From Protoeuglena noctilucae (Eukaryota): 64,000 bases of DNA. The notes below the pieces were generated by a model. That model was not told the origin of the DNA. It saw only the letters and a program-made list of their open reading frames with translations, and did not search any database. The stretch spans positions 372,001-436,000 of the forward strand of contig OY253679.1 of NCBI GenBank assembly GCA_958009085.1. Direction: 5' to 3'. This document shows, piece by piece, positions 12,103 through 60,469 of the stretch; position 1 is the first letter of the stretch; each line of letters begins with the position of its first letter. A program made the translations under genes and the position numbers.

Positions 12103-15100
12103 ATGCGCCTGAGCGGGTGGGCCGCATACCTAGCTTCGCTCCACCACGCCCTCTCCCGTGACGCCGCGAGGAGTTTTGGGCTGTGCCGCTGTTGTTCCTG
12201 GAATCTTTTCGTCGCACCATCCGCAACTCGCGCACTCGCGAGCATGGCCGGCAATGGCGCGGTGCAAGGTGCCCGCCGCGTCCCGAGCCGCCGAGCCGGG
12301 GGCCCTGTCGCGATGCCGTCCCGCGCTTTCGCAGTGAGACAGGGTCGCTCACGATGCGCGTTCTTATCTGCCCCCAGGGGACGCGGCGCAGTTCACGGAG
12401 CTGCGGGAGGGGCAGGCGCGCATCCTGCTGCAGGGAAACGAGGCCTTTTACAACAAGGCCCAGGTCCAGAACCGCGACCTTTCCATCGCCGTCATCCGCC
12501 AATTCGCCGAGCTCAGGTGCTCCCGCGCGGCTGTCCCCGCGCGGCGCGCGCAGGGCGCCGCTGCGGGCGGGCAGGCCGCACGCTTCAGCGCCGTGCCACT
12601 TGCCGCGTCTCGCGCCCGCAGGGCCGCGGAGCTCGACGCGGGGCGCGGTCCGCGACACCTCGTCTCCCGCCGGCAGCGCGCGCGTGCGGCGCAGGGTGCC
12701 TCGGACGACGGAGCGACAGCGGAGGGTCAGCCTGCGCTTGCCGATGCACCTGGCCCTTCCGGGCAGGCGGAGGGCTGCGGCGGGGATGGCGCCGAGGACG
12801 CCGGCGCTGCCCCGGATCGCCGGCTGCGGGTGCTGGAGGCCCTGGGCGCCACGGGGCTAAGGTCGATACGCTATGCGCTGGAGTTGGGCGACACGGTGGT
12901 GCGCGAGGTGGTGTGCAACGACATGTCCCATGAGGCGAGGACGAGGGGTGCGTGGTGGCGGGGGTTTTGAGTGCAATTGCCGTACCACGTTGCGGTGGCT
13001 AAGAGATGGTCTTGCTTAGACTAACGAGGGCCACGCCACCAGCTGCCACCTCTGCCCCATTCACGCCTTTCCCTCCCCGCCCTCTCTCTCCCCACCTCTG
13101 CCCCACTCACTCTCCTCCCTACCCCGCCCTCTCTGTCCCCACCTTTGCCCCACTCACTCGTTCCCTTCCCGCCCTCTTACCCCCCAGGCCGTGGCCAGCA
13201 TGCGCCGCAACATCGCCCACAACGGCCCCGCCGCCGAGCGCATCGTCACTCCCTCCCAGAGCGACGCCCGCGTCCTCATGCTGCAAGCTGCCAGCGAGGC
13301 GGGGAGGACCGCGACGCAAGAGGGACTGTTTGATGTCATTGACATTGACCCATACGGTGCCCCAGTGCAGTTCCTCGACGCAGCCGTCCAGGCAAGTTGG
13401 CGATAATGGCGGCGGCGGTGGTTACTGTGTTCGGCGGTGGTTCTGTTTTGTACAGAAAGGGACCTCGTGTCAGTGCAGTGCTGCTTGCCCCGTCACCCTT
13501 CCTCTTTTGTACCGAGCATCAACCATCTCTGTCCCATCATCGTCTCCCTGCCCACCTCCATGTCCCAATCGCCGTCTCCCTGTTCCCATTATCATTCCCC
13601 ACTCCCAAACCCCAGGCCGTGTCAGACGGGGGCCTCCTCTGCGTGACGGCGACCGACATGGCTGTGCTGTGCGGCAACACGGGCGAGGCGTGCTATGCCA
13701 AGTACGGGTCGTACCCCCTGCACCGGGCGTACGGCCACGAGCAGGGCATCCGAATCCTGCTTGCGTGCCTCGAGAGCAACGCCGCGAGGCACAAGAGATA
13801 CATCGTGCCGCTGCTCAGGTGAGACGTGAGCTTGTGAGGGTGCTTTGTGGAAGACATCGTGCCCGTGCTCAGGTGAGTTGCATGGCAGGGTGCGTGGTGG
13901 GTTGAGGAGTGCACCGTGCCGCTGCTCAGGTGAGCTGCGGAGGGTGCACAGTGCACCCGCCGTCTATGCCCATCAGGTGCTTAGCAAGCACTGCGAACAA
14001 ACACCATTGTCACTGCCTCAACCCACTCCATTCCTACCCCCCCCTCAGCCTCCACATGGACTTCTACGTCCGCGTCTTCGTTCGCATCTTCACCTCCCCC
14101 CGAGAGTCCAAGAACGCGGCGTGCAAGCTGGCGTACGTCTACCAGTCGCAGGGGTGCAGCTCCTTCTTCCTTCAGCGCGTGGGGGAGAGGCAGGGGAGGG
14201 GGCAGGGGACCAAGTACACGCCGGGGCACGGGTGAGGGGTGGGGCATGTGGGTAGAGTGGTGTGCAGGGATGCGTGGGGTGGGAGGGATGCTGTGGGTGG
14301 TTGTCAAGCCCACTATGCGCTCTGACACCCCCTCTTCCACACCCGTTCTCTCCATACCCCCCACCCCTCACGCCTCTCATACCTCTCACCAACACCCCCC
14401 ACCCACCCCCCTCCTCTCCCCAGCCCCGTGGTCCCCGAGCGTTGCCCCGAGACCGACGCCCCCTTCCTCATGGGAGGGCCCCTGTGGGCCGACCCCATCC
14501 ACGACATGGCCGTCGCCAGAAACGTGCTCTCTGACGTCGAGGCGCGCGGGGAGGGGCAATACCCGGCCGCCAGTCGGGTGGCGGCGGTGCTGACGAACGT
14601 GCTGGAGGAGCTGCCAGACACGCCCCTGTACCTAGACATGCACGAGCTCTGCCGGGCGCTGCGGGCGACGGCGCCGAAGGCGGACGTGCTGAGGAGCGCC
14701 ATTGTTAATGCGGGGTACCGGTGAGGGTGGAGGGATGCACAGGGGTGGGGCGTGGGGGAGCGGTGGGGGTGGGGGACTGGTGAGGGTGTGGAGTGGCACG
14801 GGGATGGGGTGGGGGTTACAGCTGCCATCACCAACCCATCCTTCGCTCTCTCTTTTGCGACATGTACCGCTTCAACCCATCCCTCTCTCCCTCTTTCTCC
14901 CCCCCCAGCGTCTCCTCCTGCCACGCGAGCCCCCTGGGCCTCAAGACCGACGCCCCCTGGCACGTCATTTGGGACATCATGCGCTGCTGGGTGCGGCAGA
15001 CGAGCGCGGCGGCCGGGTCGCGCCCCCCCGACCCGGGATCGTACATGGCGAAGCTGCTGTCCAAGCCACCCAAGGTGGAGGCTTCCTTCGCCAGAAACGC

Positions 15101-15702
15101 CGCGGCGCTGTCGGCCGCCAAGGCCGCCAGGAAGAACCGGTTCCCGCCCAACCCGGAGGAGCACTGGGGGCCGCAGGTGGGGGATAGTGTGGTGTGATGG
15201 GGAGTTGATCGGGGGAGCTGCAGGTGGGGGGTTGGGGAGAGTGAGGGTGCTTGTGATATGGGAGTTGATGAGGGGGTCGCGGGTGGTGGGAATTGATAAG
15301 GGGGGCCGCAGGTGGGGGGTTGAGGGAGTTGTGAGGGTGCGGGGGTGGGGCTGTATGAGCGATGGGCGGCAACGCTGTGGGCAGTCGCGCCAGTCCCTAG
15401 CAGGTAGCTGGGCCCATGCATTCTTTGTTTCTGAACCCTTACCGTCACCCTTTCTTATCTCCTCGTGTCCCTCTCAGCGTCGCCACGGCAGGCCCGCACT
15501 GAAGGGTCACGCTGTGGAGAAGGCGAGGAGCAAGGGGGAGGAGGGCAACGGGGTGACGGCAGATGGGGAAGCGACAGATGGTCAGGGCGAGGGGGCTGGG
15601 GCAGGCGCAGGGCCGGGGGTTGGGGCGGACGCGGGGGCGGGTGCAGGGACGGGGGATGGCGACGGGGAGCGAGGGGCCAAGCGGGCTCGGACGAAGGGGT
15701 AG
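12103..15702 (+). CDS. TRM1: tRNA (guanine26-N2)-dimethyltransferase, multi-exon
   Basis: Motifs FYNKAQVQNRDLSI, LEALGATGLRSIRYALE, FDVIDIDPYG, GGLLCVTATDMAVLCG, MDFYVRVFVR, GGPLWADPIHD, SCHASPLGLKTDAP, RFPPNPEEHWGP; ATGs at 12103 and 12244; stop TAG 15700-15702. Confidence 0.95.
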
Positions 15703-16072
15703 CGGGCACGGTGCTGTGGCTGAATGCGGTGCAGGTGCACAGGTTGAAAAGCATCCTCCTTTGGTGGGCTCCGCTGGTGCTGGTGCTGTTTCGGTGCCAG
15801 TGGAGCGGAAAGCCAGCAAGTGAGGCTGCCAGCGGCAGAAACTGGTCCACAGATGTGTTGTTGGCAAGCCGACCCACCAGCTCGGTTCAAGTCGAGGCCG
15901 GCTGCGCCATCACGCTTGTCTTCTCACCTGGTCCTGCCCCGTTCTCTCTCACCGCATTCGTTGGTGGTGACGCCGCCCGCTCGCCATCCTTTATTGATAT
16001 ACTCGCAAGCAGTGCGCCACAGAGGGCTCCAAGAGAAGGCGCCCGCGCTCGCGGAGGGTCGCGTGTCGAGCG

Positions 16073-16638
16073 ATGGTCATGAAGGGGATCATGGTGCTGG
16101 GCGGTGAGTGCCGCGGCATCACTCATTGGTTGTCAGATCACACGCTTTGCACGTCGCCTGCGCGCCGGCGCCTTTCGTATCCCGGCCGGGGAGCGGCCGG
16201 CGCGGACGAGGCGGGACTGCAACCGTGTTTTCCCCAGCGAGTGGCCCGCGAATGAGCGAGTTTCCCACCGCACCATCAATACTAGTATATTCTGCATGAC
16301 TCGGGATGGCAGGCGGGCCCTCATTCTCCTAACCTGCGCCAGAGCCGCCCCGTCCGCAGCGCTCGGCGCGGGGCTGTACTTCCTCGCGAGGTACGACATC
16401 CGAAGGAGCGGGCATATGTTTCGACAGAACGTAGGCGTCATAAAGAACTGGCTGGAGGAGGCGGGGAAGGCTGCGGAGAGGTGCGCGGCGCGCGGGCGGG
16501 TTTCGCTTCGCAGCACGGATTGCAAGCCGTGCGGGGGACTCATCCCGCCCCCTTGGCCGCCGCCGCAGCGCATCGAAGGACGTTAAGAAGCTGCCCAAGG
16601 ATGGGAAGGGAGATGGGGGCGGGCCAGGCTCCGGATGA
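16073..16638 (+). CDS. Small conserved single-pass membrane protein (3 exons)
   Basis: Spliced product MVMKGIMVLGALGAGLYFLARYDIRRSGHMFRQNVGVIKNWLEEAGKAAESASKDVKKLPKDGKG...; resembles an uncharacterised small green-lineage family (D.r.S...FrrNv..IrnWLEE). Confidence 0.7.
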
Positions 16639-16850
16639 CGTGCTTTTGGCAAAGGCTCTCGTTGCAGCTGATGCCAAAGTTTTGCTTATTACCTCGCGCT
16701 TTCTTCACTGGCCCTACCTCGTCCCTCGCCGCGTCGTTCAATCGGTCGTACGACTCGCCGCGAACGGCCTACCTCAGCGTGGGCCCTGGCAGCAGCGCTC
16801 CGGCACAGCCCCACGCGAGATGAAAGCACGCGCCCCTCACTTCCACACAA

Positions 16851-29000: not shown

Positions 29001-29632
29001 CTCCACGTCATGACGCAGATGGCAGCCGTGGATTTGGCCAAGGGTAACGCAGCGGTGGCGCAGGAGTACGCCAAGACGGCCGTGCTGATGGCGGACCCCA
29101 AAGACATCCTCGGGCAGCTGGGGGCCATGCAGGTGACTGTGTATGACTGGGTGATATGCTGGGGAATGGGTGGTGGGGGTGCGATGCAGGCGACTGCGTT
29201 GTGGGCGTCCCATTCTAAATTGCCCTTGGCTGCTAATGATGGCTAGAAGTGTTGCGTTCCCATCGCGACAGCCATTCTGCTGTCCATCTCAGGTGGTGGT
29301 CCCTGCGATGGAGGCCCAGAAGGAGTCGCATGCAGCGGATGTGGCGAGCACACAGGTGAGCGGCGATGCTCATGGCAGCTGGCAAGGGTGGCAGCCCCAC
29401 ACAGCAACAGCCGTGGTGCCGACGAGGCCTGTGGTATTGTCAGTGCCTGCGTGCACTGGGCGTCACTCCATTCTGACAACCAACCCCTTTCGTGCTTCGT
29501 GCTCCGCAGGCGTGGGTGAGGGACCAGCGGTCCACCGTGGAGTCCTCGGTGGCGGCCGCACAGAGGGACGTTTACTGGCATGAGGTTCTGGCGTTTGGGT
29601 TGGGCGACGAGGAGGAAGAGAGCGACGGATGA
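26067..29632 (+). CDS. MAU2: Cohesin loader subunit MAU2/SCC4-like TPR protein, multi-exon
   Basis: N-terminus AVKAYEAIC...LPRDE|VRARLHIADILLEHTYNALEAKTHADRAHL matches the MAU2/SCC4 pattern; helical repeats downstream (ARLHLACGLLAHTAG...ATRHFAAA); internal exon boundaries partly uncertain. Confidence 0.82.
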
Positions 29633-29844: not shown

Positions 29845-33803
<3,959 letters not shown>

Positions 33804-37501: not shown

Positions 37502-40386
37502 ATGGCCGCATCCATGCCGGGACGCCGCTGGTAGTGCGGCGGGGAGGCGTTGCGATGTGCAGACGTGGCCCCAGCGCCGGCGCGACGTGCAGCATATACA
37601 GTGGCATCACATTCGCGCCGTGTTGACATCGCAGGACCTCGGTCCGTGACCCAGCCGCGCGTCGCGAGGCTGCCCCGGGTGGTCGCCATGGCCAAGCCCG
37701 TCCCCGGCACTTTCGATATCGGCGCCGCGCCGATGCTGATCCCCGAGGGGCCCTGGAAGGTCATGGAGGGCAACTGCGCGTCTGTGAAGGGATTCAGGCG
37801 AGAGAGGTCGCCGCGATCCCGGCATCGGGTCAGGTTTCGTGCCCGCGACCCGCAGCGCGACAGAAGGGGCGCCTCCGCTCTCCGCAGGGCCGCCGGGATG
37901 AGCGCGGGCCTTCGCAAGCGCGGGGACAAGGCCGACTTAGCCCTGGTGCGTGTCCTGGTTCGATGGGTTGAATGCCTTGTGCGGGCCAGTGTGCTTTGAT
38001 GTCGGACGGGCGTCATGACTTTGCCTGTTTAGGACCATCCCTCGGCCGCGCCGCCCCCGCAGATCGTGGCGGATAAGCCCGCGGTAGCTGCGGGCGTCTT
38101 CACGACGAACGTGATGTGCGCCGCTCCCGTCACGTACTGCAAGCGTGTGCTGGACCGTCAGACCCACGCAGTCGCGGTACTGACGAACGCCGGGCAGGCG
38201 AACGCGGCGACGGGCGACCAGGGCGCGGCGGACGCGGAGCGGACGGCGCAGGAGCTGGCCAAGCTGCTGGGCGTGAAGAGCGATGACGTCCTGCTCATGT
38301 CCACCGGCGTCATCGGGCAGCGTATTAAGGTGAACACACCCAGGGGTGAACGCCGGGGGGCTTGTGCGCACACAGCGTCATCGGGCAGCGCATCAAGGTG
38401 AACGCACCCAGGGAGCCCCTGGTAGCGTAGACGCACATGGCAATCGAAAGGTGGTCTTGAGACCAACTCGAGGGTGCACGGGAGTGTGGCTGTCCCACTC
38501 GCCTGGTGTACCCTGGAGTAGGTTTGAGGACCATCCCTCGATCGCTCTGTGCGCGTCCCTGCCATGTCCCTGCTGTGTGGGCGTGGGTTGGCCACATGCG
38601 TGGCCCGCCGTGTGTAGTTGAGTGTGTTGGTGTGTCACTCTCAGGTCGACAAGCTTGTGGAGGGGCTGCCTACGCTGGTGGGGGCGCTGGGGCCGGACCG
38701 GGAGGACGGGCACCGGGCGGCAGGTGGGGCCATGGACTGACGATCTGTGACATGATAATGGTGGTGTTATCGTAATGATGTTACCATTGCAAGATGACAG
38801 TGGTGGGTAGTGTTGCCATGGCACGAAAGCACACCATGCCTTGACATCACGATGTCTTCCACACGTCGTTGCCCCTCTCTTCCCCCGCAGTGGCCATCAC
38901 CACCACTGACCTGGTGTCCAAGTCATGCGCACTCGAGACGCAGATCGGGGGCAAGACCGTCACAATCGGCGGCATGTGCAAGGTGCGGGGCAGGGGCGAG
39001 CGGTGACACAAAGCTGGGCAGGTGCACGACTCATTGCTGAGAGGTTTTCCATGCTCGCTCTGCTGCTCATTCCGCCGCTCATCTCCCACGACAGCATCGA
39101 CAATGGCGGCCGCGCCAGTGATGGTCGGCGCATGCTTCATTGCCTATTGCCGCGCTGCTCCCGCAGGGTTCCGGCATGATCCACCCCAACATGGCGACGA
39201 TGCTGGGGGTGCTGACGTGCGATGCGGCCGTGTCCCCCGACGCCTGGCGCGGCATGCTGCGTCGCTCCATCCGCGACACCTTCAACCAGATCTCCCTCGA
39301 CGGGGACACCTCCACCAACGACACCGTCATCGCCCTCGCGTCGGGCGCGGCTGGAAATGCGACCATCACCGACGCCGACTCGGAGGTGAGGGGGTGTGGA
39401 GTGTGGACATTAGGGTGACAGACAGGGAGGTGAGGGGCATTGATAACCCTGTTCAATGGACTTAAAGGCCACAGATAGGGAGGTGAGGGTCAATTTATGT
39501 GGACATGATGGGTCCAGACACGGAAGTGAGGGAGCGTGGAGTGTGGACACGAGGGTCACTGACACATCGGGTCCCCCTCTCCCCCCTCCCAGGACGGCAA
39601 GCGCCTGGAGGCGGCGGTGAAGGCGGTGCTGACGGGCATGTGCAAGGCCATCGCCTGGGACGGCGAGGGCGCCACGGCGCTCGTGGAGGTGACCGTCATG
39701 GGCGCGGCCACCGACGACGACGCCCGCACCGTTGCGCGATCCATCTGCTGCTCCAACCTGACCAAGGCGGCCATCTTCGGCCACGACCCCAACTGGGGCC
39801 GCATCGCGTGCGCGGCCGGGTACTCGGGCGTGACGTTCGACCCCGCATCGCTGCGCGTGGTGTTGGGCGACATGGTGCTCATGGATAAGGGGCAGCCGCT
39901 CGCCTTCGACGCCAAGGTCGCCTCGCAGGTGCGTGCGGGGAGAGCAGTTACGGCAGATGGGTGATTTATGCGAGGTGTAAGTGTAGACGGGGTGCGGCGT
40001 GGAATGTCGATGATTGTCGAGGGCCTGTTGGACAGCTTGTTGCCGCGGTTACATCTGCTGTACCTGGGCTATGGCTACCGCCTGCAGTCCACTTGCCCCT
40101 GCTGTACCATACCATGACCATCATCAACATGACCATCGCCAACAGTCCATCGCCCCACTGGGCCCCTGCTGTACCTGCACTACTGTGGCAGGTCACTATA
40201 ACTATGACTGTCGTCAACAGTATCTCTCCTTACTACTACCCCCCGCAGTACCTGAAGGACACCACTTCGGTGCACGGCACGGTGCGCATTGCCGTGAGCG
40301 TGGGCAGCGGCCCGGGCAAGGGGCAGGCGTGGGGGTGCGACCTGTCCTATGAGTACGTCAAGATCAACGCAGAGTACACCACGTGA
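37502..40386 (+). CDS. argJ: Bifunctional ornithine/glutamate N-acetyltransferase ArgJ, plastid precursor
   Basis: [34 protein letters not shown] (autocleavage Thr), [40 protein letters not shown]. Start codon uncertain. Confidence 0.96.
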
Positions 40387-43430: not shown

Positions 43431-43463
<33 letters not shown>

Positions 43464-46306
43464 GTGGAGAGCGCAGCATGGTGCTTGCTGCGTGTTCGAT
43501 GTTTCATTTACCGCGTTGTTTGATCCATTGGCAGCAGTGGCAGCAACTCGTATCGTCACATCACAAACACTCTTCCCCTTTCCCATCGCCCGCTCCCTCA
43601 CCCACCTCCCCTCCCTGCCACCCCAGGCAGCGCCGCCGCAACCTGTACCAGGAGAGTTCCACGCGCGTGGGCCTGACCACCCAGTGCACCCGCGACTCGT
43701 GCATCGGCCGGGGCAGCGCCATCGGCGACGGCACCACCGTCCACTGCAGCGTGATCGGCCGCGAGTGCAGCATTGGCGAGAACGTGCTGTTGTCGGGTAG
43801 TGTCGTGATGGACGGGGCGGTGGTGGGGGACGGGGCGCGGTTGGAGTGCACGTTGGTGTGTCCGAATGCGGTGGTGCGGGAGGGGGCGGTGTTGGGCCCG
43901 GGGTGCATTGTGGGGTCGGGGGTGGTGATTGGGACGCACCACGCGGTCAAGAAGGGCACGGCCGTGACGCTGTGCCGGCGGGACGAGGGCGCGGGGGGGG
44001 CCAAGGGGGGGGATGAGTGGAGCGAGGAGGGGGGGGCGGGTGAGTGGGTGGGAGTGGGGGGTTGTTGCGAGTGAGAGCGGGGTGCTGCGATAGGAACTGC
44101 CCTGTTACTACGTTGCAGGAACACAGCATGCGATTCGGTTACATGATGTTACCCTGACGTTTGCTCTTTCTACGTGCGGCTGCAGAGTGGATCGAGTGTG
44201 CCCCCACCGACAAGGTCCTCCAGGCGGCACGAGCGGTGGCCAAGGGAGCCATCTTCTCAGGTGCGAGTCTATGCATTAATTCAATGATATTTTCTCTATT
44301 GACTGCGAATATTAACTGTGTGATGGCGACTGCTACAGTGCTGTTACTATACCCCCTCCCCCCCACCCCAGACGTGCTTTGGGACCGTGACGCGGTGGGC
44401 ACTGACGGTGCAGGGTTCTCGTGGCACGTTTCTGGCAGGTACGCCGCCCCCCGGTACGGCCTGCAGCCGCCGACCCCGGCGCTGGCGGTGGCGTGGATGG
44501 GGGGACTGGAGGCGGAATTGGCGGCACTGGAGGTGAGGGGGCAGTGGGGGTGAGGGGTGGTGAGGGGCTGTGGTGGCGTGTGGATGGGGGGACTGGAGGC
44601 GGAATTGGCGGCGTTGGAGTTGAGGGGTTGGGGATTAGAGTGACAAGTGACAGGGGCAGTGGGGGTGGTGTGTGTGTGGATGGGCGTGGTGGTGCGTTGT
44701 CATCCCTGACACTGACATCATAATTCTTTTCTTTCATCTCTCTTCATCTCACCCATCACCACCCCCCCAGGCATCCCGCAAGGGCGCGGGTGCGGAGGCG
44801 GACGACGCGGCGTCGGAGGGGCACGGGGCGGGGGACGACCCCGAGGCGCACTTCAAGCAGGAGGTGGTGGAGACGTTCCTCAGATGCGTGAAGGTGAGGG
44901 GTGATGGAAAGAGAGATGATCAGTCTTGCGATATGCTCCATACCCCCACTTCCACCCTGATCACCACCTGCACTGCCACCCCCACTGCTACCCTCACCGC
45001 CACCGTCACTGCCACCCCCATTGCCACCCCCACTGCCACCCTCAACACCACCCTCACCATCCTCCCAGGAGCGCTTTGAGTTGGCCAACGTGGTGGTGGA
45101 GCTCAACGGCCTGCGACTGTCAGAGAACCGATCGTTCGTCGACTGCGGCTCTTACATCTTCACCACCATTCTGGGTCTCGCACTGCCACCGCCCACCAGC
45201 GTGCGGTGAGCGATGCTGTGGCTATGGGATGACGATGCTGATGATTGGAGACATCGGAGACATTGCTGCAGAAAGTGTAACAAAGGCAACAGAGGCGCAT
45301 TTCTGGCTGCGCCAATGAAGCAATTACGATTCGCTGCAATTACCAATAATGACAAGTACATTATATGTGTATACAAACATGTACAGATATACAACCACTA
45401 CCCCCCCTTTGCAGCCCCTCCTACCACTCCCTGTACCCCACCGAGTTCGCGGACGTCAAGTCCAAGGCCGGCCGCATGCAGCTGCTTGCCAAGGTCATGT
45501 CCTTGATGAAGGAGTGGGGGCCGCTGCTAAAGAAATTCGTCAAATCTGAGGACGATGAGGTGGACATGCTGCTGACGCTGGAGGAGCTGTGCGGGGGGGA
45601 GGGGGTGTTTGAGGGGTCGGGTGAGAGAGCGATGGGGCGGTGGGGGGCAGGGGTGGGGATGTCGATGGGTGCGTAAGGGGGTGACGAGAGGGATTGTGTT
45701 ACTGTTGCTATGAATAGGTGTTTCTATTGTCACCATTGCTGATATTATTATCGACACGCACCATTACCATCTCCCCCCATATCTCCCCCATCCAGGCGAG
45801 CACGGCCGTGTGTTTGCGGAGGTCTTTGAGGGTCTGCTCCAGGTGCTGTACCACGACTCGGTCGACATTCTGACAGAAGAGGGCATACTCAAGTGGACGG
45901 AGGAGAAGGAGCACGCGGACAAGAGCGAGAGGTGAATATGACTATTGGTAGTATATATCGTCGATGGTGACTGTCGATGATAGTTGATGGTGGCTGTGAT
46001 AGTAAGTGTGCATGGCTCAAGTGGGCCGAGGAGAAGGAGCACGCCGACCGGAGCGAGAGGTGTTGTGATGGGGTGATGATGGATGTTATGATTGTACTAA
46101 ATTGATTGTTCATGGTAGTTGGTAGTGAGAGATCATGCTCAGTGCCCAAGTGAGCAGCCCACACTCGACCCACTTGTCATCATATGCCATCGTAACTTGT
46201 CTTTCTCCCCAGGGTGTACCTGGACAAGTGCCGCACCTTCATCGACTTTTTGAGGGCCGATGACGACGATGACGACGATGAGGACGACGACGAGGACAGC
46301 GACTAG
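41593..46306 (+). CDS. EIF2B5: Translation initiation factor eIF2B epsilon subunit, about 15 exons
   Basis: PLVAVLLADTYSQ, APLIEYTLEWL, SVGDALRTL, FASNFDYQ, DVLQRWAYPFSPD, hexapeptide beta-helix (SVIGRECSIGENV), VVVELNGLRLSEN, W2 domain (LYHDSVDILTEEGILKW). Confidence 0.95.
42377..42474. repeat. Exact 49-bp tandem duplication in an intron, containing the palindrome GATACATATGTATC
   Basis: cgcgttggatacatatgtatctctcgcatccctggtgctgcgcaacatc x2. Confidence 0.95.
43417..43462. repeat. (GT)n microsatellite in an intron
   Basis: gtgtgtgtgagtgtgtgtgagtgtgt... seen directly. Confidence 0.95.
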
Positions 46307-46554
46307 GATAATCGTTGGGATGAATGAGGATGGATGGGGTTACTGTGGCAGACGATTGAATCATCGTAAGGGGTGGGAGCCATCTCTGCTATGGGACCAA
46401 GCGTCCCTACTCTTTGTGATAAAAGATGGGTCTTTTGCTTCAAAGCAGCTGCCTGAGACACGACACATTGCCACCGCACCTACCCTAACCCGCATCGACC
46501 CTTCTTCCTTCCTCCCCCTCACGCACCCACACCCACACCCACACCCGCATTCGC

Positions 46555-49500
46555 TCACGCACCCACCCCCGCCTTCCCACCCAATCGCTTCCCCTTCCCC
46601 TTTCCCTGTCCAATTTCCCCCGGCGCCACCCCAACCCCCGCCGCCTTGCCCGCCCCATTCCCCACCCCTCCCGCCCCACCACCCCCACCCTTGCCGCCCC
46701 TCACCCCACCTTTCTTCACCCCACCCCCCTTAGCCACCCCACCCCCCTTCGCCCTGCCAGCCCCGTTCCCCGCCACCCCCGCCCCTCGCTTAGCCTTCAT
46801 TTGACTCTTGATGACCTCAGCCATTCGCCTCAACCTCATCTCTTCCCTAGTCAGTCGCTCCCATGTTGCCATCTGACGTGACAGGGCGAAGTGACGGCCG
46901 AACGCAGCCGAGAGGGCCTGGGGGGGATTGATATGGGGGAACAGGGTGAGGAGCTTTAAGTAAAGGGGATTGAAGCTAAACGGTGGGGTTCGAACCCGGG
47001 ACGCATGCGTCGGGTGGGGGTGGGAGACGGCGCCAGTAGCAATGGCGGGGGAGTTGGCACCGCACAGCACACAATCCACCCACCGCCCCAACCCCCCCCC
47101 CCCCCCACCTCCTCATCCCCCACATCCCCATCCCCCTCCTCCTCCTCTTTGCCCCCCGCCGCCTGGCGCATCCGCCTCCGCCCCTTGCCCCCGCCCCTCG
47201 CCACCCCGCTGTGGGGCGCGGGGCGGAATTCGCCCCTCGCCTCGGCCCCGTGGATTCTGGCAAGGTCCTCCGGCGTCAGAACCGGGTTAAGGTAGGGCAG
47301 GTGGGCGAGGTTGTTGGGGAATGCGCCGGATGCCGCTTGCATGAGGGAGAGGGCGTGCGCCATGCCTTGCACGTGGGGGTGGGGGTGGCGGGAGAGCAGG
47401 GAGAGCTCCCAGAGGTGGCTGCGGGAGTGGTGAGGGGTTGTGAGTGGGGGTGGAAAGGGTGGGGGTGGTGGGATGGTGCTGTGTGGTTCGGGTGGTGGTC
47501 AGCGATGGTGAGTAGCCACCAACAGAAAACCGTCCACCTAACAATCGCCCATCGTCACTCACCTGCGCAGTGCCCCCGCTTCATTCGGGTCCGGGCACGC
47601 GGGGTCGTACCCCCCCATGGCCCTGGCCACGGTGCGGGTGGCGGGGAGGGCAGAGACGGGCGCCCCTTCCCCATCATTCTCCAGCATCAGGCGCACGCGG
47701 CCGTTCTGCTTCTGCGGATTGCGGATAAATGTGGGGGGATATGCGATAAATATGTTATGTTACACATTCAGCTATATCATGCATCAGGCGCACGCGACTG
47801 TTCTGCTTCTGCGGAGGGTGCGTGAATTGGGGGATATATGTGGGCATATGATGTAATATAGCGTGTAATAACATAAGTAATTGTTTAGCTCTGATCTGCA
47901 TAAACAGACGCGGCAGTCGTGCTCCTGCGTCTTGGGAGGGTGACGTAACAACCCTACCATAACAAGCATTGCCATACGTATATATATCCTCACCAGCACT
48001 CCCTTGGCCACCGCCAGGCACCCCATGGCCAGCCCCGGCCGCGCCTGCATCGCCAGCCCCAACGCACGCTTGCAGAAGGCAGCCAGGCGAGGCTGGTCGC
48101 CCAGCCGGGACGAAAGGAGCATGTCCTGGGTGGGAGATATAGGAGATTATTATCATTGGCAATATCAATAACAATAGTAATAATCACGGCATCGTTACGA
48201 TTACTGAGCTTCAATCACTGTCCATCGCTGTCCATCGCTGCACCAGGTGGCACAAGTGACACGTGCATTCAACCACGATGCATTTGAACCACGATGCATT
48301 TGAACCTCATAACCCATGCCACCCCCCTTCCTCGCCTGCATGACGGTGACCAGCCGCGCCTGCTGAGTCAGGGCCTGCGTCAGGGGGGCGTCGGGCGACA
48401 GGGGGACGCCAGAAACGGCGGCGTCGGCGGCGCCGGAGAGGTCCACGTCGCCTGGGGGTGGGGATGGGGGTGAGGAGATGGGCATATGATGAGAGTTGTT
48501 AGTTAAAAAGAATTGTTAGTCATACAATATGGTAAAATACATCAACAACTGTGTATGATGCGATGGTGTGATGACGAAATACCACCAGTTATACCAGTAG
48601 CATACTATTGTTAGTTTATAACCACCACTAATACCATTCAACCCACTCACCCGTCTCGACGGCCTCCCCCGCGGCGTGCATTGGTTGACTCCATGGTAAT
48701 TATAACAGTTACCATGACAAACACTAACTGCATTCATCCAAACCACCTCGTTCCCTCACCCGTCTCGACGGCCTCCCCCACGGCGTGCGACGGCAGCAGG
48801 GGCTCCTTTGCAGCATCGAACATCACGTCGTACAGCACAGCGTAGAACTGGTGTCTGTCCACGCGCAGGGCGTCCATCTGGCGGCGCAGGATCTGCGGGG
48901 AGAGGGGTGGGGGTGGGATGGGTGAGAGGAGTGAGGAGGCATATGTAATGCAATTGTGATCACTGTGCACTTGCAATGGCATTACAATTACAAACAAGAT
49001 TGCTTGGACCAGTACTACTTACATCAATAGTGCCTGCACTATTAGTAGACTATGAAGGCTGATACGAACCCACTCCCCACCCCATTTCACCTGCGCCACG
49101 GCCGCCAGCACCTCCACCCTCGCCGCCCCCACCCAGCACAACCAGGCACATTCCAAACACACAATCAGCCACATTCCAAACAGTATTACCAATGTATATG
49201 GTACTTATTAACAATAACCCCACTCTTCTCGCCTGCGCCACGGCCGCCAGCACCTCCACCCTCGCCCCCACCCCCAGCCCCTGGTTGCCCGCCAGCCTGG
49301 CCAGCGCGGCCGTCAGGTCCTGGAAATACTCCACGCCGATGCGGTGCGCGTGGGTCGCGAGCACCCGCAGCGCGGGCATCAGCAGCGGCTGGGCCAGCTT
49401 GGTCTCAGGTGAGAGGGGACCCATCGGCCCTGCCCCTTGGTCGGTAACCATGGCATCGTCACCGTCGTTCTCGCTGTCGTTATTGTTATCGTTACCATTA

Positions 49501-52500
49501 CCATAGTTATCGTGTCCGTTATCGTTGATGCTTCGCTCGTCCCCCTCGTCGGCGTCCAGTCGCGGCAGGGAGCGACGCGCAACCTCCTCGGCAGCTGCAC
49601 AAGCGGGGAGAGAGGGAGAGTGATATGTGTGTCATATCTATGTAAAAAATATGTCGTGTAACCATTGTTGCATCTACATTATGATGAAACGGCACATCGA
49701 CACACACCACACCACATGCGCTACCACCTCACATCCACACCCGCACTATCAACCCCATTCAACCACCCATCCAGACCCCTCACTGCAGTCACCACTCCCA
49801 CACCCCACCCCACTTCCCCTCACTACCCCACCCACTCCCTAACCCACCCCACCCCACCCCCTCACCCGTGCCCCTCCCCGCCACCCCGCAGCAGGCCTTG
49901 ACGATGCGGAACAACGTCTCAAACATGGCCTCGAATGTCCGACTCTGCACCCGCCTCAGCTCCCCCGCGTCGTGGGTGGCAGCCGCGGCCTCGAAGGCAC
50001 GGTCCACCTCGTCGCGGCGCTTGCGCTTCTTCTCCTTCTGTGGTGAAATGGGAGTGATTGACAGTTGATTAATTGCATTGACTATATAAGTACTCGTAAA
50101 TGACTGTGACCAGGCACGGTCCACCTCGTCGCGACGACAGCCACCCCATCCCCCCCCCCCCTCACCTTCTGCCCCATCTTGCTCATCGCCCACTCTCTCA
50201 TCCCCACTCATTCATTTCTTCATCCCCACTCATCATCCCCCTCACCTTCTTCCCATCCTCACTCATCCAAACCCATCCTCTCAGCCACTCTCACCTTCTG
50301 CCCCTTCTTGCTCATCACCCACATCCCCACTCAACCCTTCACCCACTCATCATCCACCCACCCCCTCACCTTCTGCCCCTTCTTGCTCGTCGCCCTCCCC
50401 CCCTCCTCCTCCCCACCGCCCCCCTTCCCCCCCTCCTCTGCCACCCCCCCCAGCTCCGAATACTCCACTCCACTCAAACACTCCACGGATGAAGCAGGGA
50501 CGTGCCGCACGGACCGGGGAGTGACCCACTTGCCGTTGCGCTTGAAGGGCTTGGGGCGGGAGAGGTAACGACGCACCAGGTCGGCCACCAGCTGCACGGC
50601 CTCCGATTTCACACTGGGGGGAGCGGGGATGGGTGGTATGTTATTATTATAGCCTATATACACATAGTATATAACATTTAATATGCATACAGAGCGCATG
50701 GTGGGCAACCAGCTGCACGGCATCTGATGTGACACGGGGGGGGGGGGAATGGGTGGGTGTTAATATAGTGGATATGATATATGATATATAGAGCGCATAT
50801 GGTGGGCCAGGGTCGGCCACCAGCTGCACTGCGTCCGACCTGACGATAACACAGCCAAAGGGACGGTTGTGACCAGTTTATGAATGGAGGGGTGGCGTGG
50901 TGTGAGGCAGGTTACAAGGCGCTTATTATGCAATATTATAAGCATGAATGTGACTTGTTCATGTGCCCCACTCCAGCTCTCACCGGAAGTCCTGGCACTC
51001 CCTGAGGATGCGCGCCAGTGCCCTCCCCGCGATGTCAGAAACGGCGGCGTCGGAGTCGGGGAGCATGCCCACCACGGCCCTGGGGGGGAGGAGGGGAGGG
51101 GTCACGGTTGATGTCACGGTGTATGCAATAAACAGGTGATCGTTTTGTTTATAGTGAGGTATGAGTATAGATGGTGCATGGCATCAGTAGCCACCGCATA
51201 TGCAACACTGATCATAGTACATAGAACATAACATTAACACTGACAACTCACGTCAGCAGGTCCGACCGGTAGTTGAAGTGCCACAGCGACGCATGCCATT
51301 AAATGCAAGTCCCATCTCTGCCATCTCACCTCAGCAGGTCCGACCGGTAGTTGAAGTGCCACAGCGAGGCGGCCAGCTCCCCCAAGCACTGCGCGGCCGC
51401 CCTTCTCTCCCGGATCTGGCGCCTGGCGACTGACGTCAGGGAACCACGTGGCGCCTGAGTCAGGTCGGACGGGACCACGGGGCCGGGGGGGCGGGGGCCC
51501 AGGGCGGCGCGGAGGGGGTCCAGGTCGACGCGCTGGTTGGCGGCATCCGTCTGAGATGGTGGGGGGGGGGGTAATATGGGTGGCAGTAAGGTGGCAGTGG
51601 GGATGGCAGTGAGGGTGCAACACGAGGCGCAGAGCGTCGTCATTTCGTGCTCCGTGCTGCTCACCAGTGCCCTCAGGTACTGCTGGTACATGGCCACCAA
51701 TCCCAGCTCGAAGTTCCGCAGACGCTTCTGGTCCTGCGATTCAAACACAGGAAGAGGAAGGTAACAAATCACATCCAATCGTTACTTCAAGTATTCATAA
51801 TTTAGAATTCCCACCTGCCTCATCTTGTCTCACCTCGCACAGCTACCATAAGATTCAAATTCGCCCCATGCCCCTCACCTCGCACAGCTGTTTCATAATT
51901 CGAATCTGCCCCACCCCCTCTCCTCTCACCTTGGACAGCTGCCCCTCGGATTCGAATTTGCTGAGGGGCCGCACGTGGTAGCCTGGGGCCACGTCCCGGA
52001 AGACCTTCACCAAAGATGCCATGGCCAGGGCACGGATGCGGGGGTCCTTGTCACGACACAGGGAGACGACGGACCTGAAAGGGGGGGTGTGGCAACAGGG
52101 GTGAGTAGCATGGTGGTGTGGTAACAGGGGGGGTGGCCAGGAGATGACCAGCACAAACCATCACAACACCACCCATATACCCTCACCTCAGCTCCCCCAG
52201 TGCCTCTTCGGGCGCCTGCACCACCGCCTGGCACGCCGCGGCCATCTCCACCCCCAGCTGCTCCCGCCTGACGTCAGGGTCAGAAACGGCCATCGCGGCC
52301 TCGATGCCATCCAACTCGGGGCCGGGGTCGGGACGGGCGGGCTCCTGGGGGGAGGGGGAGGGGGGGTGTGGGGGGTGGTGAGGGTGAGCGTGTGGGGGTA
52401 GGGGCTCCTGGGGGGAGGGGAGAGGGTCTCTGGGGTGGGGGTTGTGTGTGGGTGAGGGGTGTGGGGTGAGGGTGGGGTGGAGTACCGTAGGTGTGAGGGG

Positions 52501-54158
52501 CAGGGAGATGCGTGTATATGGCATGCTGTGGTGAGTGATCATGGCAGATGCGGAGACGCGAGGAGCGAAGACGGCTCGGCACTCCGCACGTCCCTCCTCG
52601 CCCCACACCCCATCCCATCCACCAACCTCCACCCCACCCCCCGCAGTAGCGACATGCACCCCATCCCCGCACCTGTTCTGCCGCCCTCTGCTATCCCCAC
52701 CTGCTCTGCCGCCCTCTGCTATCCCCACCTGCTCTGCCGCCCTCCGCTCGCTGCGCTTCTGGGCCGCCGCCGCTTTCTTCTCCTCCTTCCTCCTCCTCCT
52801 CTCCTCCTTGAGCCTGAGAAGACGAGCGAAGATGTTACCAGATAAGACGGGTAAGATGGCAACACATAGCCCTCTCTCGTAGCCCCACCAGCCCAGCACC
52901 CCCGTGCCACCTCTCCCCATCCTCAGCCACCTGCCCCCATACACCCCTCCCACTCAGAGACCCCACTTTTATTCCCCATTGCACCACTACTCGCCTCTTC
53001 CTCTCCTCGTCCTTGGCCATCTGCTCTAATACACCCTCTCTGCACTGCCACTCACACACCCCACTCTCACTCCCTACTGCACCACCTATTCACCTCTTCC
53101 TCTCCTCGTCCTTTGCCATCTGTTCCTGCACCCGCGCCATCCGCTCGTCCTCCACCACCGTCACCCCCTCCACCGCCACGTCCGAAGCGCGAGCCAGCAC
53201 CGCGCGAGCGCGCGACGTCATCCGAGGAAGCCGCACCACCTCCCCGGCCATCGTCTTGACCGGCAGCGGCGCGGCTGCGTCGTCCTCATCCTCGCCACCC
53301 GCACCCGCACCCGTGCCCGCGCCGGCCATGCGCCGCAGATGGGCCGACTCCAGCCCACCCTCATCCCCGTCGGACTCGGAGCCGCTCTCCGCATCGCCGT
53401 CGTCGTCGCCGTCGCCATCCCCTGCGCTGCTCACGCCATCCCCTGCGCTGCTCACGCCATCCCCTGCGCTGCTCACGCCATGGTCAGTTGTTGCCTCCGG
53501 CCGGCGTCGCTTCTCCGCAGGACCGCGGTCCTCGCGCGGCTCGCTGAGGTACTTGTCGATCGCCTGCAGTAAGGAGATTGTCTCAGGTATCCACAGGGCC
53601 AGTAACGGTGCACATCGCTCGCCGGCGGGGCTCTGGGCGGCACCGCTTCGTCTCACGGAGCGTCGCGCGCCGCGCTGCACCCGCGACACGGGCGCTGCCG
53701 GTCGCGGAGTCGAGAGCAAGAGCATAAGAACCATGCGCCGTGACGCGGGGGCATATCGACGCGCGGGCGCGGCGGGAGGCGTCTCAATGGGACCTCGCGC
53801 CGCACCTTGCTGTCGAGGCGCTCGAGGAACGCGGCGGAGGATCCGTACTCTCGGAGAAACTCAAAGTCCTCATCGTCCACGTCCACGTCATCGTCCGCCA
53901 GCTGCGGAAGTGCCGGCGCGCGCGAGGGGCCCTTCCCCTGCGGGCGCCGAGTCGGAGCGGCTGCTGGAGCTGTCGGGGCCGCGGAGGACAGTGCGCAGCC
54001 CCAGGATGCGCGTGTCGGACTTCTCGCAGCGCATGTGTGACGCATGTGACCACCAGGCCGGCCCATGTCGCCCCAGGCGCGCGGCAGCGCCCGCGGGCTG
54101 CACGCGGCCCGGGCGCTGGCCGCACCTCGCGGGCCGCCTCCCTGGCCTTCTTCCCCAT
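46555..54158 (-). CDS. NOC3: Nucleolar complex protein 3 homolog, about 20 exons
   Basis: DVDDEDFEFL, LPVKT, SLVKVFRDVAPGYHVRPLS, LRNFELGLVAMYQQYL, HFNYRSDLL, EAVQLVADLV, FETLFRIVK, RLAAFCKR. Confidence 0.92.
53412..53480 (-). repeat. 21-bp in-frame tandem repeat x3 in a NOC3 exon (DGVSSAG)
   Basis: cgccatcccctgcgctgctca repeated on the plus strand. Confidence 0.9.
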
Positions 54159-57500: not shown

Positions 57501-60469
57501 GCGGGCCCCAGCGCCCCCACCCCACCTACCTCCGCGCCGCCGGCCTACCCCCCGCCGATGGGCCCTGCTCCCGGCGCGGGGTCTGCGCCGGCCTGGGGTG
57601 CGCAGCCGGGGCCGGGCTACCCCCCCCGCCCGGGTGCGAACCGCCTGCCCCTGCCAGTCGACGCGACGCAGCCCCGGGGCGCCTACGCTGACGCCGGGAT
57701 GGGCGCCCGCAGTCCCGGGGCGGGGATGCGGGGGCCGGGGGGCGGCCCTGGGCCGGCTGCGTTTGGCGCGCCTCCCCCGGGGCACCCGGTGTTTGCGCCT
57801 GACGACCGCATTTCGAGCATGGGTGAGCGATGAGTGCTGGCGTGGTGGGGAGCACGAAGTCATGTCTGGGTTCTTGTCTGTGTCTCTTGCTGCCTCGTTG
57901 TGGGTGAGGGGGGTGGCTCGGCAGCCCCCCACAGCACCCTACGCTGCGACATGCACTGTAGAACCACCCACCGTCGCCCCATCCCTGCCGCAGTCGGCCA
58001 GGCCGGCCACCTCTCCGCCAAAATGTCCAAGACTCGCATCGGGCAGCACAGGCAGGACCGGATGAACCGCGGCGGGCCCAGGGGCAACGAGGGGCGGGGC
58101 GGGAGGCGCGACGACGCGGGTGATGGGCGCGGCGGGAGGGGCAGCTGGGGCGTGGTGGATGACAGGTCGAGGAGGGACGGTCAGATGGACGAGCCGAACG
58201 AGGCTGTGAGGATAAGCGAGGAGTTTGAGTCACGGATGTCGCATCCTGTCATAAGTCGCTCACTCACCCTCACACCCACCCTCGCTGCACCTCACCTCAC
58301 CACCCACCCTCACTGCACCTCACCCCACCCCATTCCCCCCACACGCAGGTCGAGAGGGCCCGCGAGGCCCTGGAGAAGGCCCGGGCCAAGGCCCAGGCGG
58401 AGTTCGGCAACCGCCGCATGCGCGCCAACCCCGCGGCCGTCGACGCCGAGCTCGCTTCCCTGGTCGCCGCGCTCGAGCCGACGGATGAAGACCGCCGGCG
58501 GCTCGCGGACGCCCACGGCGCCGTGCAGCGCATCGTGGGGTTGATCCTGCCGGGTGCCGAGGTGGCGGTTTTTGGGTCGGCCGCCAACGGACTGGGCGTG
58601 CGTTCCGGGAACGACATCGACCTCACCATCCTCGCCCCGGTGCTCTGGGCGCTGCCGCACGGCGATCCGGCCCCGCGCGCGAGCGCCGGGGAGGCCGTGG
58701 AGGTGCGGATGGAGGCGGTGGGGGCGGGGGTGGCGGTGTCGGTGCGCGCGAGAAACGGCGCGGGGGCGGGGGCGGCGGACGCCCCGGGCGGCGACGACGA
58801 GCGGCTGCGGTGGCCGGCGGAGGAGTTCGCGCGCGCGGTGCACCTGGCCGGGCACCTGCTGGCAGGCCACGTGCGGGTGGGCGACGTGGGCGCGGCGTCG
58901 GGCCCCGCCCCCGCGGTGTCTCCCCAGGAGGCCGCGGCTCTTGGGGGGATCGGGAAGGGCGGCCGCAGTCCCCGGACGGAGGGGCACGCGCGTCTGCTGG
59001 CGGCGCTGTTGGAGCGGCTCAGCCGGTGCGGGGAGATGCAAGTTGTGCTGGAGCTCATGTGAGTGACTGAGGGAGGGGATGGGGAGAGCGGCAATGCTTA
59101 ACTTGTACATGAGCCATGCTCATGTGAGTGACTGGGCAAGGAGGGTGGGCGGCACCTGCATTCCAAATACATGCTCACCACCCCTCCCACCTCCCCGCCC
59201 CCATACCTCCCCACCGCCTTTTCACCCCCTCCCCACCCCTCTCACCCCTCACCCACCCTTCCTTCCCCAGCACGGCCCGCATCCCCGTCTTGAAGCTCCG
59301 CCACGTCCCCACGGGCGTGACGATCGACCTGACGGTCAACAACTACCTGGCCCTTTCCAACACGCGCCTGCTCCACCAGTACACGTCGATCGACCCCCGC
59401 GCCAGGCACCTCTGCCTCATCGTCAAGCACTGGGCCAAGAGGCGGGCGGTGAACGAGCCCTTCCGCGGCACGCTGTCGTCCTACGCCTACGTCATCATGT
59501 GCATCCACCTGCTGCAGACGCGCCGGCCGCCCGTGCTGCCGTGCCTGCAAGACGGAGACCACGAGCCCGTGATGGTCGACGGGTGGGACGTCTGGCACAA
59601 GGCGAGGGGCTGCGCTGCGGGGAGAGGGGTGGTGGGGGAGCTGCGGAAGAGTGCTGGTACTGTCCTGTCACACATGTACCCTCACTGCCCTGCCACCCCC
59701 ACTGCCACCACCACTCTCACCCTCACCCTCACCGACACTGCCACCCCCGCTGCCACCCTCACCCTCCCTACTGCCACCCTCCCCTCCCCCGCAGCCAGCC
59801 TGCGAGGCCCTGGCCGCCTTCGACCCCTCCCGCAACACCCAGTCGCTCTCCTCGCTGCTGTTCGACTTCTTCAAATACTGGCACGTGGAGCACGACTACT
59901 GGAACGACGTGGCGACGATCCGCGTCCCTGGGGGGTCGCTGACCAAGGAGGCCAAGCGGTGGGACAGGCGCGTGGGTGTCGACAACCACCGGCTGTGCGT
60001 GGAGGACCCCTTCCAGCTCGACCACAACCTCGCCAGGGTCGTGGACAAGAGCAGTTTGAGGGCCATCCAAAGGGAGATCCGCAGCGCGCTGGCCGTCTTG
60101 TGGTGAGCCAGCGCCGTATAAGCGGGGTGACGGGAATGGGGTATGGTTACGGTGCGGTCGAACGGTGTTGTTAGTCATGTGGGGAGTGCCTGAAGGGCAG
60201 GGTGGGATGCGACGTGTTGCGTGGATGCCGGATGTATTGCTCGCAGGTAGTACTCCCCTTCTTCCCCCCTTCCTGCCCCACACCCAACGTCACCCCACAC
60301 CCCACCTCGCCCAACCTCTTGCCGCCCCCATCGCCGCAGTGACCTCGAGGACCCCCTCCCGAAGCTTTTTGAGGAGTTCGCCTTGATGCGGGGCCCCATG
60401 CACCACAACAACCACAGCCACAACCACAACCACAACCAAAACCGCAACGGCCAACGGTGGCAGTCGTGA
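54502..60469 (+). CDS. URT1: URT1/Cid1-type terminal uridylyltransferase with very long disordered N-terminus, about 10 exons
   Basis: [80 protein letters not shown]; last exon 60340-60469 ([13 protein letters not shown]...). Upstream P/G/A-rich exons join in compatible phases (joining inferred). Confidence 0.88.

Follow-up and report, generated by a model that had tools for sequence, protein, structure and literature searches.

In a 64,000-nucleotide (nt) stretch of the Protoeuglena noctilucae genome (GenBank assembly GCA_958009085.1, contig OY253679.1, positions 372,001 to 436,000 of the forward strand; hereafter the window), many introns contain degenerate copies of their own splice junctions, that is, of the exon end with its donor or of the acceptor with the exon start. 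These copies, which we call echoes, are direct repeats lying 28-142 nt apart (up to 209 nt within arrays), always on the intron side of their own junction, and they hold 5-60 exon bases together with the splice consensus; dispersed or inverted copies of complex sequence were not found by repeat search. We suggest that the echoes are probably relics of small tandem duplications (28-142 bp) that straddled a splice junction, and that they are best read as belonging to a known kind, the tandem repeat with an end unit lying across an exon-intron border, of which the human F7 gene has an example. Junction-spanning tandem duplications are locally dense in the window; they lengthen introns and leave strong, unused splice sites behind.

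A preliminary description of the window had listed 20 junctions with echoes, which fall in 18 of the 97 introns of our gene models. We read the coordinates of each and ran a probe test, in which the last or first 30 exon bases were compared with the adjacent intron, the 96 other introns and reverse complements serving as controls. Echoes are strong at 13 of these junctions (13800, 38307, 44493, 45888, 47683, 48755, 49228, 49995, 50365, 50578, 51325, 52726 and 53090) and weak at six (15166, 29124, 39381, 51924, 52340 and 59053), weak meaning that the repeat array is real but that its exon part is at most ~13 nt or its identity ~70%. The remaining one, claimed for the MCM gene at 32046/32017 (32017..32060, minus strand, intron 31909-32047), found no support: its probe score is 6, 88 of 96 controls are equal or better, and the similarity amounts to ~10 bases. 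Over all introns, 10/97 exon-end probes on the donor side beat every control with a score of at least 14, and 3/97 probes beat every control on the acceptor side, of which one, 52814, owes its score to a chance match of purine-rich sequence; with reverse-complement probes the count was 0/97 on the donor side and 0/97 on the acceptor side. The same pairs were recovered independently by repeat search, by Tandem Repeats Finder (TRF) and by an annotation-free scan, whose controls, shifted by 1025-1200 nt, returned 0-2 events. The 19 supported junctions are as follows; X5 denotes an independent metagenome DNA run, and X8, X10 and X11 mark RNA contigs.

TRM1-like gene, 13797..13937, plus strand: intron 13819-14048; the exon end and its donor (13800) recur at 13854 and at 13914, giving units of 54 and 57 nt; probe score 16, 0/96 controls as good; echo donors of 12.6 and 11.7 bits; Pfam TRM on the flanking exons.
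TRM1-like gene, 15166..15325, plus strand: intron 15177-15477; a G-rich donor with ~11 nt of exon before it, repeated at 15214 and 15302; classed as weak, the exon part being short and G-rich; probe score 11, three controls as good, internal probes significant.
Gene 9, 29124..29205, plus strand: intron 29133-29292; the donor with 13 nt of exon, copied at 29180, where GT has become GC; alignment score 15; weak; no Pfam match for the gene, so that its earlier label, MAU2, is unverified.
ArgJ, 38304..38415, plus strand: intron 38330-38644; a segment of 23-37 exon nt, the donor and 15 intron nt (junction 38307) is copied 68 nt downstream; probe score 20, 0 controls as good; echo donor of 8.9 bits; Pfam ArgJ.
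ArgJ, 39381..39560, plus strand: intron 39386-39592; four 44-53-nt units from the junction, with 5-9 exon nt copied; weak; pseudo-donors of 12.2, 12.2 and 9.0 bits; RNA contigs X10 and X11 use the first donor, and DNA contig X5 spans the array.
eIF2B-epsilon, 44492..44627, plus strand: intron 44533-44770; 40-55 exon nt plus donor (44493), copied 87 nt downstream, the echo having TT for GT; probe score 26; repeat identity 94%; outer donor in RNA contigs X10 and X11.
eIF2B-epsilon, 45886..46062, plus strand: intron 45932-46212; 45-60 exon nt plus donor (45888), copied 128 nt downstream; probe score 24; repeat identity 89%; outer donor in RNA contigs X8, X10 and X11; DNA contig X5 spans 45029-46293 with 0 differences.
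NOC3-like gene, 47678..47940, minus strand: intron 47712-47993; acceptor plus exon start (47683), with upstream copies from 47781 and 47907, the AG being kept in both; probe score 24; DNA contig X5 spans 47457-49119.
NOC3-like gene, 48641..48788, minus strand: intron 48452-48759; 29 exon nt plus GTGAG (48755), copied 109 nt into the intron with 33/34 identity; repeat 97%; outside this part the unit stays close to controls (spacer similarity p = 0.045).
NOC3-like gene, 49076..49275, minus strand: intron 48893-49223; ~55 exon nt plus the donor region (49228), copied 142 nt into the intron; probe score 23; repeat identity 84%.
NOC3-like gene, 49991..50136, minus strand: intron 50038-50369, acceptor side; exon bases +18 to +42 (junction 49995) copied 117 nt upstream, in a copy where the junction can no longer be made out; the 30-base probe missed this echo, which a separate comparison scores at 23.
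NOC3-like gene, 50147..50395, minus strand: intron 50038-50369, donor side; copies of the exon end plus donor (50365) from 50290, 50241 and 50161, with derived changes common to the copies; pseudo-donors of 11.8-12.2 bits; probe score 22.
NOC3-like gene, 50576..50858, minus strand: intron 50614-50983; pyrimidine tract, acceptor and exon start (50578), with two upstream copies in units of 111-121 nt, the nearer one having CG for AG; probe score 20.
NOC3-like gene, 51238..51370, minus strand: intron 51080-51329; 41-46 exon nt plus donor (51325), copied 78 nt into the intron; probe score 29, second alignment 45; repeat 92%; a NOC3 homologue matches both exon and echo.
NOC3-like gene, 51829..51945, minus strand: intron 51734-51929; exon end and donor (51924) copied twice in 45-51-nt units (TRF period 45), the copies being closer to each other than to the exon; weak; probe score 12, one control as good; DNA contig X5 spans 51338-52378.
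NOC3-like gene, 52340..52425, minus strand: intron 52345-52728, acceptor side; C-rich tract, CAG and 6 exon nt, copied 63 nt upstream; weak, of low complexity.
NOC3-like gene, 52664..52750, minus strand: intron 52345-52728, donor side (52726); a 28-nt unit (20 exon + 8 intron nt) in 2.8 copies with 96% matches over the whole unit; probe score 18; the youngest array.
NOC3-like gene, 52987..53125, minus strand: intron 52814-53093; 29-40 exon nt, donor and 49 intron nt (53090), copied 99 nt inward with GC for GT, and a weaker second copy; repeat 90%, spacer similarity p = 0.006; probe score 27, longer alignment 52 over 78 nt.
Cid1/TUTase-like gene, 59052..59142, plus strand: intron 59059-59270; 6 exon + 11 intron nt (59053), copied 65 nt downstream; weak; pseudo-donor of 11.0 bits; outer donor in RNA contigs X10 and X11; spanned by DNA contig X5; Pfam PAP_assoc.

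The donor of intron 48893-49223 (49218-49232, minus strand) may be a GC lying 9 nt upstream of the GT that our gene finder chose; the GC choice was an assumption of the preliminary description, the echo has GT at this place, and both choices keep the frame.

The echo copies are real DNA and no assembly artefact, because independent metagenome contigs carry them: in the X5 run, which comes from another sample, contigs span six arrays with 0-1 differences. Window DNA is also present in marine metagenome runs, and no difference in copy number between the window and the metagenome contigs was seen among those listed, the comparison covering contigs only. Where RNA contigs show it, the working junction is the outermost one. 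These contigs, which come from three runs of one study and in which minor isoforms are invisible, join from the outermost donor in 4/4 echo introns with a listed joint (39386, 44533, 45932 and 59059).

The layout is tandem, and the units were probably duplicated whole. When the intron-derived remainder of the unit was compared with the sequence past the echo, these flanks were significantly alike (p<0.05) in 7/10 events, which suggests that whole units were duplicated; no residual flank similarity was found in 48893 (p = 0.36) and 51080 (p = 0.47). In 52345, 52814 and 50038 the inner copies have derived substitutions in common, which means that arrays also extend by re-duplication of inner units.

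Introns have grown by these events, as the preliminary description had proposed. For the statistics on length and geometry we used a hand-curated set of junction arrays with units of at least 40 nt, which excludes the 28-nt (52345) and 16-nt (48126) arrays and low-complexity C-rich repeats. The 16 introns with such arrays have a median length of 280.5 nt, compared with 162 nt in the other 81 (P = 2e-6); once their extra units are subtracted, this falls to 149 nt (P = 0.38 against the others). Array introns are thus of ordinary size without the extra units, and the duplications account for the whole excess length, so that echo arrays offer a direct measure of the contribution of small duplications to intron length. 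Intron gain, which had been raised as a further possibility, found no support, since no echo shows the layout of a duplication-born intron and there is no introner family among the 97 introns; the echo findings have no bearing on intron origin.

The inner copies decay neutrally. Mismatches between echo and exon are even over the three codon positions (18/220, 25/221 and 28/221; P = 0.30), indicating that echoes do not evolve as coding sequence, and we thus rejected coding-constrained sequence or an alternative exon as an explanation. Of 26 echo donors, 22 have kept their GT and four have lost it; 19 score at least 8 bits, where working donors have a median of 9.5 and other intronic GTs a median of -0.1 with a 90th percentile of 5.5, so that the spare splice sites predicted earlier are indeed left in the introns. 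Acceptor echoes have kept AG in three copies and lost it in one. The donor consensus is changed at 21/216 positions (hand count) and the exon-derived part at 71/662; since the consensus has changed about as often as exon-derived bases, echo sites are neither protected nor specifically disabled, and neither preferential disabling nor preferential keeping of the echo GT is seen among the 26. An AT-biased decay was rejected as well (31 GC-to-AT vs 22 AT-to-GC changes, hand count). Were an echo donor used, the product would contain an in-frame stop in 16/21 cases and be frameshifted in 13/21; 20/21 would be unproductive, with a single case open and in frame. If the same holds genome-wide, dozens of introns would carry 1-3 near-perfect pseudo-donors or pseudo-acceptors at known distances, and these would provide a ready test of first-site choice by a compact, intron-defined spliceosome.

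This arrangement resembles intron 7 of human F7, for which the accessible portion of Borensztajn et al. (2006, PMC1557585) describes a 37-bp minisatellite with its first unit across the exon 7/intron 7 border, the repeats running head-to-tail, the functional pseudo-donors being silent and the upstream-most site being chosen. In both cases, as far as that portion goes, the outermost direct unit overlaps the working junction (at 13 strong and six weak junctions here), and identical or near-identical pseudo-donors lie in the intron while the outermost is used. F7 as described there is a single locus with near-identical units and copy-number polymorphism, whereas here ~18 introns in 64 kb are involved, on both donor and acceptor sides, with units of 28-142 nt that are mostly decayed outside the exon-derived part. 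We found no genome-scale account of junction-spanning duplications in the full-text literature searched, most subscription journals and supplements lying outside it.

We propose that a tandem duplication whose unit straddles the junction would leave the outer copy joined to the exon without a break; if the first donor or the last acceptor is the one used, the whole inner copy would then be spliced out, leaving the protein unchanged and the intron longer by one unit, and the inner copies would persist as pseudo-junctions that decay neutrally and are sometimes re-duplicated into arrays. Junction arrays would dominate the local repeats because the introns are short relative to the units, because duplications within exons would be purged, and because the exon partner of each pair would be held fixed by selection. 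We infer slippage or template switching as the mutational mechanism, with an extra process such as exon-to-echo gene conversion perhaps keeping a few echoes fresh.

How far junctions are favored over other sites is a closer matter. Among the 19 events whose units reach 40 nt or more, 16 span a junction, where uniform placement would lead one to expect 10.2 (P = 0.003), given units that measure 47-142 nt and introns that measure 100-250 nt; if junction pairs are taken to be detectable twice as long, one partner being unable to change, the expectation is 12.9/19 and P = 0.076. The annotation-free scan found 10-17 exon-edge/intron events. The preliminary description had named as its refutation an echo frequency no higher than the background of tandem duplication inside introns. 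The bare rates come close to that, with 10/97 for exon-end probes and 76/900 for intron-internal ones, but most of the internal matches lie inside junction arrays. The duplicate at 42377-42474, in the eIF2B-epsilon intron 42332-42501, is a wholly intronic tandem duplication (49 nt x2, 100% identity), and young whole-unit duplications thus also occur away from junctions. We consider that the junction excess and the fresh echoes leave room for a possible exon-anchored conversion or junction-directed process.

Several observations weigh against plain tandem duplication as the whole account. Independent intron-internal arrays number only two (13046 and 42373) beside 16 junction arrays, and the annotation-free scan, run with five parameter sets, found no duplication in 16.2 kb of intergenic and untranslated-region sequence, where a hand-made estimate of target size would place ~1/3 of the events in intergenic sequence. 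The echoes are clustered in one gene, and the donor side exceeds the acceptor side (10 vs 3 in the probe test), asymmetries that plain duplication leaves unexplained. Decay is uneven within units: identity is 373/448 = 0.83 in the exon-derived part and 343/563 = 0.61 in the rest of the unit, compared with 0.51 for unrelated intron starts, while decay in one lineage as opposed to two predicts ~0.68-0.72 by our own arithmetic. Four events drive this gap between exon part and remainder, namely 48452 (28/29 vs 0.56), 51080 (0.89 vs 0.57), 48893 (0.86 vs 0.51) and 44533 (0.88 vs 0.61), and in 51734 the inner copies have an identical 16-nt donor region between flanks that are ~59% alike. The gene models are, moreover, of our own making, the list of junction events was curated by ourselves, and RNA support covers 10 introns, none of them in NOC3, where RNA depth is low.

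Much of this unevenness would follow if a founding tandem duplication were succeeded by recurrent short-tract conversion from the exon, itself frozen by selection, to the echo, a process that would add to tandem duplication and that we regard as possible, though with less than an even chance. Beyond the donor, similarity between copies usually holds for 5-15 nt and then falls off sharply, at the point where selection on the outer copy also ceases, as conversion from that copy would have it; four echoes keep 86-97% identity while their flanks are close to controls, perfect cores are long (~39 nt in 44533, ~37 nt in 51080), and one-way conversion would make junction arrays outlive any other local duplicate, in keeping with their excess over intron-internal and intergenic ones. 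Homogenization can be partial at best, however, given that inner copies in 52345, 52814 and 50038 share derived substitutions that do not match the exon and that those of 51734 agree with each other and not with the exon; in 4/11 events (38330, 50038, 51734 and 52814) flank identity matches simple decay, and 20-55 nt is a short length of homology for conversion in most organisms. Dispensing with whole-unit duplication altogether, a junction-directed copying could insert just the exon end and splice site into the intron, through templated repair synthesis or transcription-tied template switching, for instance at G-rich, R-loop-prone intron 5' ends. The lack of flank similarity in 48893 and 51080 and its marginal value in 48452 (p = 0.045) would fit such copying, as would the excess of donor-side copies and the absence of comparable duplicates from 16 kb of untranscribed or intergenic DNA; we nonetheless hold it to be clearly unlikely, as flank similarity is kept in 7/10 events, the array at 52664-52750, the youngest, repeats a whole unit in plain tandem fashion, ordinary intron-internal tandem duplications occur in the same genes (42377-42474), and inverted copies, common in repair-templated insertions, are absent. 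We also know of no process that ends its template a few bases past the donor. Because arrays number 16 at junctions, 2 within introns and 0 in intergenic sequence, and because several echoes are fresher than their own flanks, one may speculate that junctions are preferred, self-renewing sites of local duplication through transcription-linked template switching or exon-anchored conversion; we think this rather doubtful, but if true, purifying selection on exons would be an indirect driver of intron expansion and would maintain a stock of spare splice sites that are close to perfect.

That the echoes are themselves kept by selection, as decoy or helper U1 sites, stepping stones of recursive splicing or switches for unproductive splicing, appears very unlikely to us, even though 19/26 echo donors are as strong as working donors and well above the background of intronic GTs, every echo is of AG/GT form, and echo-donor use would give the stop-containing transcripts that regulated unproductive splicing requires. 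Their donor consensus is kept no better than the neighboring exon-derived bases (~10% changed in both), such elements would have no reason to need 20-55 exon-derived bases, the AG is preceded by GC-rich, coding-like sequence and no pyrimidine tract, the RNA joints listed use the outer junction only, and the genes concerned are unrelated housekeeping genes. Recursive splice sites were rejected on similar grounds: AG/GT is present, but GC-rich exon-derived sequence precedes the AG and the introns measure 160-384 nt. Tandem sites of the NAGNAG/GYNGYN type were likewise rejected, the spacing being 16-209 nt and 20/21 echo-donor products having a stop or frameshift. Least probable of all, to the point of being remote, is that the echoes are target-site duplications, parts of introners or assembly artefacts. 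Introner families are described from marine green algae such as Micromonas in the part of Verhelst et al. (2013, PMC3879977) at hand, and the window has two 200-N gaps, one of them flanked by a 1197-nt exact duplicate. An all-vs-all blastn of the 97 introns gave, on the other hand, only the gap-related duplicate and two 20-22-nt matches; the copies lie inside the intron and not at both of its ends, no terminal inverted repeats accompany them, the donors (GTGAG/GTGCG) and an intron density far above that described for Micromonas do not fit, and the copies are mutually diverged and present in independent metagenome contigs. Small tandem duplication across the junction, followed by neutral decay, thus accounts best for the echoes.

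Other systems in which duplications meet splice sites are instructive by their differences. In the Rogers model, reportedly treated by Hellsten and colleagues in 2011, an intron is said to be created by tandem duplication of an exon segment with an AG/GT proto-splice site. A duplication model of intron gain is also given in the consulted part of Lehmann et al. (2010, PMC2891723). The likeness lies in a small tandem duplication in or near coding sequence that splicing makes harmless. Introns born in this way begin with the GT of copy 1 and end with the AG of copy 2, their ends mirror the flanking exons and their length equals that of the duplication, whereas here an existing intron holds an internal copy with its own donor or acceptor, which amounts to lengthening and not to gain; we rejected a duplication birth for the introns at hand, their echoes lying 28-209 nt from the donor, with a donor of their own and 60-200 nt more intron to follow. 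Like Micromonas, the alga of the window is marine and green, and many of its introns appear to be lineage-specific, but the introners there are families of similar introns, according to the same part of Verhelst et al., and the introns here have no common sequence. Introners were rejected in that no element is shared among the 97 introns and neither terminal inverted repeats nor an insert-flanking target-site duplication was seen; in 41.5-54.2 kb, the only inverted repeats have low-complexity G-rich or C-rich arms. Rogers and Bendich (2025, PMC11782384), in the section available to us, read direct repeats near intron borders as insertion scars; these too are short direct repeats that involve exon-intron borders, but they are described there as 4-30 bp long and as pairing the 5' with the 3' border, while an echo pairs a border with an internal site 28-142 nt off, often in arrays.

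We also considered a dispersed copying of short patches, since a 10-nt motif recurs 32-63 nt into three NOC3 exons (48410-48419, 51036-51045 and 52281-52290, minus strand). It was rejected: the motif has eight one-mismatch matches, and 9/100 shuffles reach eight. Two of the three exons have ~16-18 identical bases in common, and the motif may reflect a repeated peptide motif.

The echoes had been called pervasive, which holds within this window but mainly for one gene, the NOC3-like one. Junction arrays occur in 8/18 NOC3 introns vs 8/79 elsewhere (P = 0.0016), and strong echoes in 8/18 vs 4/79 (P = 1e-4). Low expression, weak selection or a local mutational hot spot are possible reasons for this clustering. 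Echo-bearing introns are less GC-rich (0.54 vs 0.62). The window as a whole is intron-dense with 56-78% GC in 2-kb steps; its part from 44000 to 52000, which holds most of the strong echoes, has 58-61% GC vs 65-70% around it, and the introns there have 44-50% GC, with AT-rich cores, and lie between GC-rich exons.

Gene models were made with our own two-strand hidden Markov gene finder, which allows GT donors only and was seeded with 10 introns and several exons from RNA contigs. Unconstrained training diverged (277 introns) and was dropped; the constrained run used here gave 22 genes and 99 introns, reduced to 97 usable ones after a false 15-nt exon had been merged, one intron corrected to its RNA form and one at the window edge dropped. 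The gene finder regained 9/10 RNA-supported introns, the same 10 that had seeded its training. Donors in the window read G/GTGAG or G/GTGCG, and acceptors a C-rich tract plus CAG. Pfam identifies TRM1, transketolase, MCM, IGPD, ArgJ, eIF2B-epsilon, NOC3p/CBF and a Cid1-type nucleotidyltransferase among the predicted genes, and its profile positions continue across several predicted introns. From a HMMER search for NOC3 homologues with 12 matches, five were taken into tblastn, where two full-length homologues match eight NOC3 exons in order and stop at the predicted borders. The false 15-nt exon (47794-47808) sat on an acceptor echo of the NOC3-like gene, and automatic annotation of this genome may hold similar errors. 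For the transketolase exon, the nearest named relatives are green algae, at no more than 84% identity; together with the occurrence of window DNA in marine metagenomes, this led us to regard the window as coming from a green alga of the sea that lacks a close sequenced relative.

At one of the gaps, the 1197-nt exact duplicate (530-1726 and 1927-3123) flanks the N run at 1727-1926 and doubles one predicted gene with its 111-nt intron; this is most likely a scaffolding artefact, and otherwise a very recent tandem duplication. A perfect 21-nt unit in 3.3 copies lies in frame in a NOC3-like exon (53413-53481, minus strand, 100% identity), repeating a seven-residue peptide, and is the only exon-exon local duplicate found. 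At 43417-43463 a (GT)n tract of ~23 units with two GA interruptions begins exactly at a predicted donor, offering a GT every 2 nt.

A metagenome scan with a NOC3 exon found no relative, while a scan with an eIF2B-epsilon exon found three distant loci and one relative (L001-L003), which is 61% identical and poor in introns. Six introns are predicted in this relative, one with a 43-nt tandem repeat that falls short of the exon; no exon echo stood out, though the probe test was not run there. Its eIF2B-epsilon gene (L001 453-3275, compared with window 41593-46306) has the first 3 of 13 introns at identical positions and lacks the 10 downstream ones, as 3'-biased intron loss would lead one to expect, and the 3' half of its ArgJ has no introns, from which it follows that the echo introns are either younger than the split or were lost by a 3'-biased process in the relative. 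The relative is too distant and intron-poor to date or polarize the echoes. The gene order eIF2B-epsilon, small ribosomal-protein-like gene, ArgJ is kept in it, with a changed orientation.

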